From the NCBI GenBank assembly GCA_963693365.1, contig CAVNZM010000003.1, positions 8,365,312 through 8,429,311 on the forward strand: a stretch of DNA of 64,000 nt, given 5' to 3'. Source of the stretch: Amoebidium appalachense. Its lineage: Eukaryota > Protista > Ichthyosporea. Under the pieces are notes generated by a model. It did no database searches, was not told where the DNA came from, and was given only the letters and a program-made list of their open reading frames with translations. The position numbers and the translations under genes were made by a program. Shown here piece after piece: positions 40,101 through 43,100 of the stretch. Each line of letters starts with the position of its first letter. Position 1 is the stretch's first letter.

Positions 40101-43100
40101 ACACCGTTAGGCACGTACGTACAGAGTTCGGATGGGAAAAAATAGATGCTGCCTGCATACCCGGAGAACAGTCGTGATACACCGCACGTCATACGTCTGC
40201 CATCTGGCATTTTATATATCCATTTAATCACTTCCACATAAACGAAATAACTTACGTGACTTCTGGTTGTGTGTAGGTCGCATGTGTGGTGTGCAAGTAG
40301 GATGGTGGTGATACACTACAACAGCACTAGCCCCTGTATGTTATGTGCTGGCAGAAGAAATGTGAGCTGGAGCGAAGCGGAAGGTGAAAGGTGTGCGTGT
40401 GTTGGGGGAGGGGGGGGGGGGGGAAGGGGGGGGGGGGGGGGGGGGGGGGGGGGGGGGGGGGGGGGGGGGCACACCTGCTGCAACCATACGGCTTGGTGGA
40501 GCATTGCTCAATTTGTTGATGAAGATATCCTGAGAAGGAAAAATGCAAACAAAAATGTGTGTGTGTGTGTGTGTGTGTGTGTGTGTGTGTGCGCGCGCGC
40601 GCGCGCGTGTGTGTGTGTGTGTGTGTGTGTGTGCGTGTGTGTGTGTGCGTGTGTGCATGCGTGCGTGCGTGTGTGTGTGTGCGTGTGCATGTGCGTGTGT
40701 GTGTGTGTGTCTGTCCGTGTCTCTTGGTGCATGTCTGTTCCTTTAAAGGTTACGTGCATGCACCTTGCATGTGAGAGGGAGGTGATTGGGAGGAGTAGAG
40801 GGTGTTAGGCGGGATCAAGTGTGTGGTGGAGGTGGGAAAGGGGGAAACACGGGGAGGGGGAGAGGGGGGGGGGGGGGGGGGGGGGGCTGGGGAAGAAGGG
40901 ATGTTAGGCTGTAGTTCATAACAACTAACATCAGTAAGAGGTGCCTCGAACATGGCAAGCCAAACCCAACATCTGTGCATACACATCAAGCAATCGTTCT
41001 CATGCTCCACGAGGCGTGTGTGTGTGTGGATTAGGGGGGAAAGGGGGGGGGGGGAGGGGGGGGGGGGGGGTTAGGAGAATGTGTGCTATTCATTCCTTCA
41101 TCCCTCACTTGCACTTTTGCACCATTTGCTGTTGCATGCCTGCGCGAGCTTCCACGTGTCCTTGAATATGTGAGTGTGTGTGCATGAACGGGGCCGTGTG
41201 CGGTGTTTGCATGTGTAGGTGTGTGTAGCATGTTATTGCATGCTTACACTTCGTCAATTTTCCGGTTAAGGCAAAAAGACAAATAAAAACAAAAGAAAAT
41301 AACACCCAAAAAAAAAAAAAAAAAAAAAAAAAAAACAGAATCGATAACAGCAGGCAGAAAAGAGATGAAGGGGGAACAAGAAGGTGGGGGGGGAGGGGGG
41401 TTGGTTACCGATTCACCCTGGTCTCTTCTTCTCAACTCAAAATGGTTGCCTCCAGGGGCGGAATTTGCCTCCCCACACTCCCAATTGGCATACATCTGGA
41501 GGGGGGAGTCGTGCGAGCCCATTCGCTCCTCCACCACTGCACATGGCCAGTATTTAATAAGTCGTTTGCCTAATATGGTAAACTGATGGACTATTAATAG
41601 TTAAATATGGTAAAGGGAATGGAACTTTGATGGAATATTTTTAACATTGATGGTGAGTGGGCAAGTGATATTTTTGCACTTGGTTTAGCTGTTACATTAC
41701 ACATGATCATTGAATGTTTTGTGTTGTCTAATGTGTGTGTATGTGTGTGTGCGTGCGTGTGTGTGTGTGGCATGGGTGGTTGTGCGGATGGAAAGGGACG
41801 GCCCACGTGTGTGTGTGTGCGCGCGCACGCGCGTGTGTGTCTGTCTGTGTGTGTGTGTGGTGTGTGTGTGTGTGTGTGTGTGTATGTGTGTGCGTGTGCG
41901 TGTGCGTGTGCGTGTCCGTGTGTGTGTGTGTGTGTGTGTGTGTGTGTGTGTGTGTGTGTGTGTGTGTGTGTGTGTGTGTGTGTGTGTGTGTGTGTGTGTG
42001 TGTGTGTGTGTGTGTGTGTGTGTGTGTGTGTGTGTGTGTGTGTGTGTGTGTGTGTGTGTGTGTGTGTGTGTGTGTGTGTGTGTTCCGATTGTGGGTGCGG
42101 GGGGAGGGGGGGGGGAGGGGGGGGGGAGGGGGGGGGGGGGGGGGATTGATGTATGCGTTAGAGCGCTGGAAATATGGAGGAGACAACAAAGAGCAACAAC
42201 GAACGTCACAAAAGTGGGAAATCCCAAATCAAATAATTTAAGCGTGCAGGCAGAAAACACTTGAACAGAGCCCATCATCAGGGGGGTTCCTATGCCTCCA
42301 CAAAAGCATGGGTTTCGACTCTTTAACCTCTCACGCGTGGTTCCCAACCCATACTTTGTTTCAACAGCAATAGGCGAGTCCACCCGTCTTGGCCAAAGAC
42401 GAGCAGGATTGTTCAAGGAGGAGCAATTTAAGAAAACAGAGTCTACAAAAAAGAAAGGGGGGGGGGGGGGGGGGGGGGGGGGATGTGCGCGCTGTACACG
42501 GTACGAAGCACCCATACACCATGAAGAACACATTCATGTGCATATACGGCAGAACAAACACACAAGCTACATACCATAATGAGAGTGAGAGGGGGGGGGG
42601 GGGGGGGGGGGGGGGGGGGGGGGGGGGGAGCAATGGCTCACCTCCTGTTTTTGCGTCTTCCATCACAGCCACGAGATAATAGTCATCGACTGATTCCTGT
42701 GGGTCAAATTTCTGCAGTAACCTGAAAAAAAAACACCTGTTAAAATTAAAAGAGTAGTGGTGGGCACATATGCACACACCATTTTTTTCTCACTCACTTG
42801 CTCCCTCACACAAACAGACAAACAGACATACACACGTTCACTTCCCTCCCCTCCCTTGCCCTCCGCCCCTTCCTCCTCCTCCCCCCCCCACCCACCTCCA
42901 CTCCCCCCAGTTTCTCTCTCCCTATTTAACTTTCCCCATCTTCTCCCCTCGTCCCCTCCTCCAGCCCCCCTCCCCTCCCTCCCTCTCTCCCTCCCCTCTC
43001 TCTCTTTCTTTGTCTCCCTTTCTTTGTCCCTCTTTCTCTCTCTCCCTCTCTCCCTCTCCCTCTCCCTCCCTCGCTCTCTCCCTCCCTCCCCCTCACCCTC

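Follow-up and report, generated by a model that had tools for sequence, protein, structure and literature searches.

The 64 000 nucleotides of Amoebidium appalachense DNA analysed here (contig CAVNZM010000003.1 of assembly GCA_963693365.1, positions 8 365 312 to 8 429 311; hereafter the window) read as intron-rich eukaryotic sequence with RasGEF-like, PWI plus Nab2-type CCCH, SH3-ankyrin and F-box leucine-rich repeat (LRR) host genes. Dispersed among them are 11 related pieces of a non-coding repeat carrying a predicted hammerhead ribozyme core with rearranged strands. Four of these pieces, copies A, B, C and D (table 1), lie on the sense strand within introns of the RasGEF-like gene; the introns around A, B and D were read from splice signals, and only that of copy C is joined across in a contig, from run X11 (runs X11 and X14 are guessed to be RNA, from one sample). 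Ten of the 11 pieces (window 11042–43623) are on the minus strand, the orientation in which the RasGEF-like and Nab2-like genes are read. The strand bias of C runs is mild over the window (127 versus 79) and reversed in the Nab2 region. Simple repeat makes up about 20% of the window, and runs of at least 8 G or C number 206; many of these may be targets or by-products of the ribozyme repeat family.

The repeat unit is 310–385 nt long, bears C runs on both flanks and is often 5′-truncated. It falls into three subfamilies (A, B and C), each with a 3′ end that is common to its copies and has a C run behind it. A C run also precedes nearly all pieces, whose 5′ starts lie at varying distances from the 3′ end, and subfamilies A and B are alike only in the ribozyme region. 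Copy C starts 14 nt into its intron, behind GTAT and a C run; because it is truncated at the kink bulge described below, it lacks the upstream stem II strand, hairpin P4 and the 5′ strand of the closing helix P0. This copy and its C run sit 4 nt behind the 5′ splice site (34502–34506, minus strand), and the intron is still joined in the X11 contig. Copy D differs from the family majority by changes of its own in stem I, P0 and the kink-turn. Copies D and E start 2–3 nt past the predicted cut (2 of 8; P about 0.014 if truncation is uniform, post hoc), a hint of cleavage there that also fits a retroelement. Joins of a tail, a C run and a copy occur twice in the window (42481–42456 and 20522–20504) and in single contigs of run X1; they could be partial tandem (pLTR) copies like those of Naiad/Chlamys elements, and insertion into an older C run explains them equally well. 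The copies are dispersed in the window, rather than forming the tandem units with a type I hammerhead that characterize retrozymes of the non-long-terminal-repeat kind. A tRNA-derived head, as in short interspersed nuclear elements, was considered and dropped: there was no sign of one, and ARAGORN found no tRNA. On sequence grounds, the repeat is likely to be a non-autonomous retroelement that inserts into C runs.

Public contigs cover copy B evenly from about position 30457 down. Summed contig depth over the B fold reached 1.2–2.3 million against 48 on single-copy DNA (run X1), and up to 180 000 for the A type, but this sum is not a copy number, as overlapping short contigs appear to inflate it by up to about 30-fold. 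For that reason we claim an order of magnitude only, and the family probably numbers in the thousands. Some B-type contigs contain a tandem repeat of the 48-nt stretch 30314–30361 (depth 802 in X1 and 2486 in X3), which includes the 5′ strand of the closing helix.

Table 1. Repeat family members, predicted ribozyme folds and host gene features in the window.
Feature	Positions	Strand	Remarks
Copy A (subfamily A, 313 nt)	42144..42456	minus, sense	between C runs; RasGEF-like intron
Copy B (subfamily B, about 384 nt)	30078..30461	minus, sense	apparently full length; between C runs; intronic
Copy C (subfamily C)	34306..34492	minus	5′-truncated at kink bulge (AGU)
Copy D (A type)	33005..33200	minus	behind C run; starts 3 nt past predicted cut site
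Copy E (A-like, decayed core)	20419..20504	minus	behind C run; starts 2–3 nt past predicted cut
Copy F (B type)	43498..43623	minus	truncated in C-rich stem I strand just before CUGAGGA
A-type 3′ tail	25256..25383	minus	no C run ahead
B/C-type 3′ tail	19197..19281	minus	between C runs
C-type 3′ tail	11042..11136	plus	between C runs; sole plus-strand member found
B-like 3′ tail	42481..42533	minus	directly upstream of A, C run between (head-to-tail cluster)
C-like 3′ tail	20522..20549	minus	directly upstream of E
Ribozyme fold A	42260..42417	minus	
Fold A, P0	42417-42410/42267-42260	minus	
Fold A, P0b	42408-42406/42273-42271	minus	
Fold A, hairpin P4	42404-42382	minus	
Fold A, stem II	42380-42376/42321-42317	minus	
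Fold A, return (C) helix	42374-42366/42296-42289	minus	
Fold A, kink bulge	42365-42363	minus	GUU
Fold A, 16-pair arm	42362-42347/42313-42297	minus	with stem III
Fold A, predicted cut	42346/42345	minus	
Fold A, stem I	42345-42343/42284-42282	minus	
Fold A, GAAA	42316-42313	minus	
Fold A, CUGAUGA	42281-42275	minus	
Fold A, U	42274	minus	
Ribozyme fold B	30176..30336	minus	
Fold B, P0	30336-30329/30183-30176	minus	
Fold B, P0b	30327-30325/30189-30187	minus	
Fold B, P4	30323-30301	minus	
Fold B, stem II	30299-30295/30236-30232	minus	
Fold B, linker	30294	minus	1 nt, variable
Fold B, return helix	30293-30284/30212-30204	minus	
Fold B, bulge	30283-30281	minus	GUU
Fold B, 16-pair arm	30280-30264/30228-30213	minus	
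Fold B, predicted cut	30263/30262	minus	
Fold B, stem I	30262-30259/30201-30198	minus	
Fold B, CUGAGGA	30197-30191	minus	
Copy C, predicted cut	34473/34472	minus	
RasGEF N-terminal motif exon	37785..37952	minus	host gene; E 7.5e-6, under Pfam's cut-off
Further RasGEF-like exons		minus	flanking copies A, B, C, D; read by eye
Host intron (GT..AG)	33657..34506	minus	holds copy C; joined across in run X11 contig

The whole window was scanned with a descriptor that allowed all six orders of the hammerhead blocks. It returned exactly three loci, every one of them on the minus strand with its blocks arranged site–GAAA–CUGANGA (SGC), whereas 200 dinucleotide shuffles (500-nt blocks) averaged 0.01 loci of this order per window. 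They correspond to copies A, B and C, each of which has CUGANGA, GAAA and a UH cleavage site; H17 lies at 42346, 30263 and 34473, respectively, with the predicted cut directly after it. Stems I, II and III adjoin the core, with A15.1–U16.1 and G10.1–C11.1 in place, stem I being just 3–4 pairs long and stem II having two candidate partners. Copies A and D have U at position N7, and copies B, C and F have G. In an alignment of five copies, two of them full, changes on both sides of a pair were found in three of eight stem III pairs, three of eight closing-helix pairs and one of three stem I pairs. For the fold as a whole, 8 of 36 pairs showed such changes and 98.8% of cells were paired, a combination that none of 500 shuffles equalled, although this count draws on two full rows, the same rows from which the structure was derived. 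Folding energies compared with shuffles gave z-scores of −3.0 for copy B and −1.85 for copy A. Across the B family, 12 variant rows reach 5% in 312 nt, none of them in a core position. We regard it as very probable that a hammerhead fold is kept by selection. The original prediction, made from the letters of the window, had described the three minus-strand copies, their non-circularly permuted order, cut sites at 42346/42345 and 30263/30262, N7 as the variable core position and covariation in stem III and the closing helix, and re-reading bore out each of these points, while adding about eight truncated members that it had missed. The comparison with Rfam hammerhead models that it proposed gave no hammerhead family for copies A and B at E up to 10, nor was there a hammerhead among the matches listed (150 of 181) when the window was scanned.

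The two candidate partners for stem II lead to different architectures. With a strand upstream, between hairpin P4 and the stem III arm, stem II is wholly Watson–Crick (GACUC/GAGUC in A and GACCC/GGGUC in B). At their loose ends, contigs of the C type carry GACCUA and GACCCA upstream and UAGGUC and UGGGUC on the GAAA side (consensus, unphased), and the upstream GACYY motif varies in step with its GAAA-side partner at two positions. For B, the minimum-energy structure includes this stem II unprompted, with a pair probability of 0.66. Past CUGANGA-U, the bases GGG would then pair with (U/C)CC, the helix running on into the closing helix. Given the upstream GACYY stem II and the GGG–(U/C)CC pairing, the ends of the molecule and hairpin P4 would be inserted between A9-U and G10.1; that is, the core is likely, judging from the pairings, to be opened at this point, with the closing helix and the hairpin placed in the gap. 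We hold this split-core wiring to be probable, and think it equally probable that the stem II strand does not lie within 1–2 nt after CUGANGA, as it does in block C of type SGC, although the GGCUC found there can pair as well.

From 5′ to 3′, the molecule would run through P0, P4, the stem II strand (G10.1 onward), the return helix, the kink-turn, the stem III strand and the GUU site; then the stem I strand, a small hairpin, the stem II partner, GAAA, the stem III partner and the kink-turn again; and finally the return helix partner, the stem I partner, CUGANGA-U and the P0 partner. In topological terms, this would be the type-SGC knot closed to a ring and reopened between A9-U and G10.1.

A second feature of the fold is its long arm. 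Stem III extends to 16 pairs in all three subfamilies, the last two or three being of G.A type or U.U, and is followed by a 3-nt bulge (GUU, GUU and AGU in A, B and C) and then by a helix of 8–9 pairs, here called the return helix. The arrangement fits the kink-turn consensus of a 3-nt bulge, G.A at 1b.1n, A.G at 2b.2n and a canonical helix beyond, in full for A and B; for copy C, the bulge and G.A pairs are in the window and the C helix comes from contig loose ends. Position 3b.3n is A.G in A and C and U.U in B, and kink-turns with A.G at 3b.3n are described as the Mg-folding type (PMC5061560). Each of copies A–D counts 15 nt from 1n to C3, though the linkers share little sequence, and both the return helix, 8–9 pairs in A and B, and the kink are fixed in length across the three diverged subfamilies. 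The family majority (about 99% of depth, X1) restores the pairing bases lost in copy D, namely 1n A (33155), C2.2 (33141) and a P0 pair (33122). In the B family, the majority base at 30293 converts U.G to C–G, and the sites with three letters are ones predicted to be unpaired: 30294, the 1-nt linker after stem II, and 30258, the first mismatch beyond stem I. The bulge and the G.A and A.G pairs between helices are those of standard kink-turns such as Kt-7 and box C/D (PMC5061560), whereas the present one sits inside a predicted self-cleaving ribozyme of a retroelement, a setting for which no case was found in the literature searched. The linker between cut site and GAAA holds a perfect palindrome of 8–10 nt in each subfamily, the sequences differing (42342–42325, 30258–30240 and 34469–34456, minus strand), and these palindromes could form a strut between two molecules. 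The P4 loop, self-complementary in A and B, was likewise considered as a palindrome and set aside because the X1 consensus of C-type loose ends has a non-palindromic loop.

The block order itself is already in print. As type SGC, it was described by Eckert et al. (2023, PMC10085705) in 583 predicted sequences, none longer than 104 nt, which all came from metatranscriptome assemblies, and it cleaves in vitro at 0.007–0.13 per minute. The window family shares with HRIMA-1 and its variants the site–GAAA–CUGANGA order, three mutually crossing stems and a U after A9, and its return helix, which would hold together the far ends of stems I and II, would be the equivalent of their 'I' helix, which ties the GAAA-to-CUGANGA linker to the strand past stem II. 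It differs in that the fold is likely opened at A9-U/G10.1 where theirs is continuous, in the kink-turn by which both strands of the return helix pass into stem III, in its length of about 160 nt and in being a genomic DNA repeat rather than metatranscriptome RNA. The published classification took it that no more than 1–2 nt can interrupt CUGANGA and the two strands next to it, and the published SGC pattern specifies a U after A9, linkers of 0–8 and 0–15 nt, at least four stem I pairs and N7 = U. With linkers so limited and four stem I pairs required, that pattern would miss the window family: all copies exceed the 0–8 nt linker, A and C have a 3-pair stem I, and N7 is G in B and C. Here the original prediction needs revising. 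It had asked for a check on whether the order was already known and had listed a UG insertion after A9 as a caveat, a single U at this position being already part of the published pattern, and it had overlooked the probable opening of the core, the kink-turn in the arm and the retroelement context, none of which was found in the literature searched (few subscription papers were covered). The accessible parts of PMC3088659, PMC6155905 and bioRxiv 10.64898/2026.07.22.740005 hold no description of a split-core design. A pattern scan for relatives returned 2 metagenome, 12 viral and 1 prokaryote loci, all taken as chance; none of the 14 metagenome and viral loci passes the split-core descriptor, and L001, L002 and L015 read by eye as coding DNA.

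With stems II and III coaxial, as they are in the hammerhead structure, a crude rigid-rod estimate places the kink some 24 steps away from the outer end of stem II, while the return helix spans 9 steps, leaving 23–44 Å for a 1-nt linker; an arm of 5 pairs closes at most angles tried. Kink to kink measures 33 steps, or 3.0 turns. In this model a single molecule cannot close the fold, so cutting is likely to need two copies. A lone copy would fold as a rod, its terminal loop (with the site and GAAA) out of reach of its internal loop (with CUGANGA and G10.1), and since the two could not meet, it should do no cutting inside a host intron. Where copies follow one another head to tail in a transcript, or where two transcripts come together, the loops of a copy would engage its neighbour instead, and cleavage would release an RNA of unit length; two or three RNAs could dock head to tail, each side measuring 33 steps. 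This fits the presence of intact A and B in sense introns, the splicing of copy C's intron in the X11 contig and the existence of full-length copies spanning the cut site. Hammerheads of Penelope-like elements (PLEs) are reported to work as dimers (PMC4209133), and the two-copy activity proposed here would resemble theirs by a different route. The type I hammerheads of retroelement repeats are similar in being non-autonomous, in their setting and in their proposed dependence on a second copy; those have a short palindromic stem III, often form tandem arrays and are depleted from introns, whereas here stem III is long, the copies are dispersed and gating would come from the length of the arm. 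On this geometric model, we put the chances of two-copy gating at even. The X11/X1 depth ratio is lowest in the cut-site bin (6.3, versus 11–29 outside 30249–30303), and was not used as evidence because contigs cannot show ends or levels and the mix of subfamilies confounds it.

Cuts at two successive sites of a head-to-tail transcript would free the unit, which may be ligated to a circle and then copied, primed at a G/C run, and copying once round from the C run would yield the observed unit. The enzyme would be a Naiad/Chlamys-type Penelope-like reverse transcriptase encoded elsewhere. Chlamys elements target (C)n, in many cases, and (CA)n, and Naiads are described as lacking canonical hammerheads while having eight 'half cores' with GAAA 35–50 nt away, according to the accessible text of Craig et al. 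(2021, PMC8557442). The window family shares with these PLEs microsatellite targets (here C runs), 5′ truncation with variable starts and non-autonomous members, and differs in having no open reading frame (ORF). By eye, five Naiad consensus 3′ ends from that source, two from octopus and three from Acropora, show the same split wiring. The octopus tails have a kink-turn consensus of opposite polarity to that in the window, 5 rather than 16 pairs from the core; those of Acropora have a 12-pair arm, a bulge and a 10-pair return. Hinge-to-hinge sums of about 22, 31 and 33 steps give a weak hint of whole turns. We somewhat favour a Penelope-like mobilizer. Two contigs, X11 record 10 (1106 nt, depth 446) and X14 record 18 (898 nt, depth 168), have the family core near one end and run on for several hundred bases unlike the window; they are candidates for a longer or autonomous element.

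The sequence, the pairings, the conserved lengths, the high copy number, the truncations and the C-run flanks are direct observations. As the best explanation of the whole, we propose a non-autonomous, C-run-inserting retroelement whose split-core, kink-turn hammerhead would cut only between copies, with a probability of about 0.5. A more specific version is tentative: the kink-turn would act as a strut whose length, three helical turns between kinks, bars self-docking of the core opened at A9/G10.1, and a ring of two or three RNAs would form a copy-counting switch, possibly tightened by Snu13, silent as a lone intronic insert and active in tandem transcripts.

A number of points weigh against the proposed explanation. 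Its geometry is the crude estimate given above. No full head-to-tail pair of intact copies is present in the window, and contig depth of the B family runs across the cut site without a step, which means that most B copies were made from templates spanning it. Active intronic hammerheads are known in other systems, and tolerance in introns is thus no proof of silence. The B family is so uniform that invariance within it is no proof of selection either. As for the mobilizer, none of the 420 ORF pieces of the window contains a reverse transcriptase or GIY-YIG domain, and none of six 3′ ends of (C)n-targeting Chlamys elements has CUGANGA in its last 450 nt (by eye). A link to Chlamys through the ribozyme is therefore not supported, with the proviso that line breaks can hide motifs. 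With regard to stem II, the GGCUC that follows CUGANGA can also pair with the GAAA-side strand (−7.6 versus −8.0 kcal/mol for GACYY in A, −6.7 versus −10.2 in B) and is invariant in all copies. The folding ensemble of A gives the GACYY stem II a probability of 0.0, and P0b has 0.01 in both copies, in a nested model that has no pseudoknots or kink energy.

The alternative that survives best keeps the split-core wiring and lets a single molecule cut itself, through opening of the return helix or a hinge less stiff than the model takes it to be; the cut halves would stay clamped by P0 and the long stem III, with little harm to host splicing. All the pairing evidence for the split core serves it equally, cis cleavage is known from SGC forms in print that face a comparable unexplained distance (PMC10085705), and the short-arm geometry of octopus Naiads can close in cis. 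The starts of copies D and E next to the cut also speak for it. Against it, a 9-pair helix would have to open in exchange for stems of 3–4 and 5 pairs, which looks unfavourable, and neither the fixed length of return helix and kink in three diverged subfamilies nor the B copies that span the cut site is what this reading leads one to expect; we consider it unlikely.

Less probable still is a plain type-SGC ribozyme, in which stem II is made with GGCUC and stacked on the closing helix, U or UG follows A9 and GACYY forms an alternative, inhibitory pairing. This was the stem II of the original prediction, which paired GUC with GGCUC. Such pairing is possible in 96% of cells, with an energy near that of GACYY in A and without variation among copies, and CUGAUGAUG corresponds to the published SGC pattern. 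The GGCUC stem, on the other hand, has no two-sided change and one broken pair in copy C, while GACYY tracks its partner at two positions, and the Naiad 3′ ends (by eye) have a perfect upstream partner for the GAAA-side strand. The earlier assignment is thus probably wrong, GACYY being the better fit.

That the repeat is a hammerhead-derived scaffold which no longer cuts, serving as a docking signal for the reverse transcriptase or an L7Ae-family protein, seems improbable: A and B do share only the ribozyme region, P4 and GGGCUC are more invariant than pairing requires, stem I has just 3–4 pairs and metazoan PLE hammerheads are reported to cut weakly in vitro, but every catalytic base and the UH site are kept with only N7 varying, stem I has a two-sided change and two copies start at the cut site.

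Elsewhere in the window, a second, unrelated repeat occupies 34734–35150 (depth about 500–3100, versus 48–84 for single-copy DNA). It is also present in X11 contigs, has no C-run ends and does not match the descriptor. On the plus strand, 12885–14741 carries an F-box plus LRR frame of about 1.9 kb that shows no evident introns and has stop codons in frame at 13212 and 13776; it may be a pseudogene or retrocopy, and the search gave one weak homologue. The best-identity SH3-ankyrin matches of the ankyrin exon are chytrid OSTF1 and one EukProt entry.

Non-circular permutations of the hammerhead have until now been reported only from environmental RNA, and their classification takes the CUGANGA block as unopenable. 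A split core in thousands of nuclear copies would be a permutation that the proposed set of six does not contain, and would account for its escape from pattern searches. The 'half cores' of Naiads would find an explanation too and, if the proposal is true, the split-core form is the missing ribozyme of the Naiad clade, here outside animal genomes. A kink-turn that sets solo versus paired action would offer a test of how such elements spare host pre-mRNA yet process their own transcripts.

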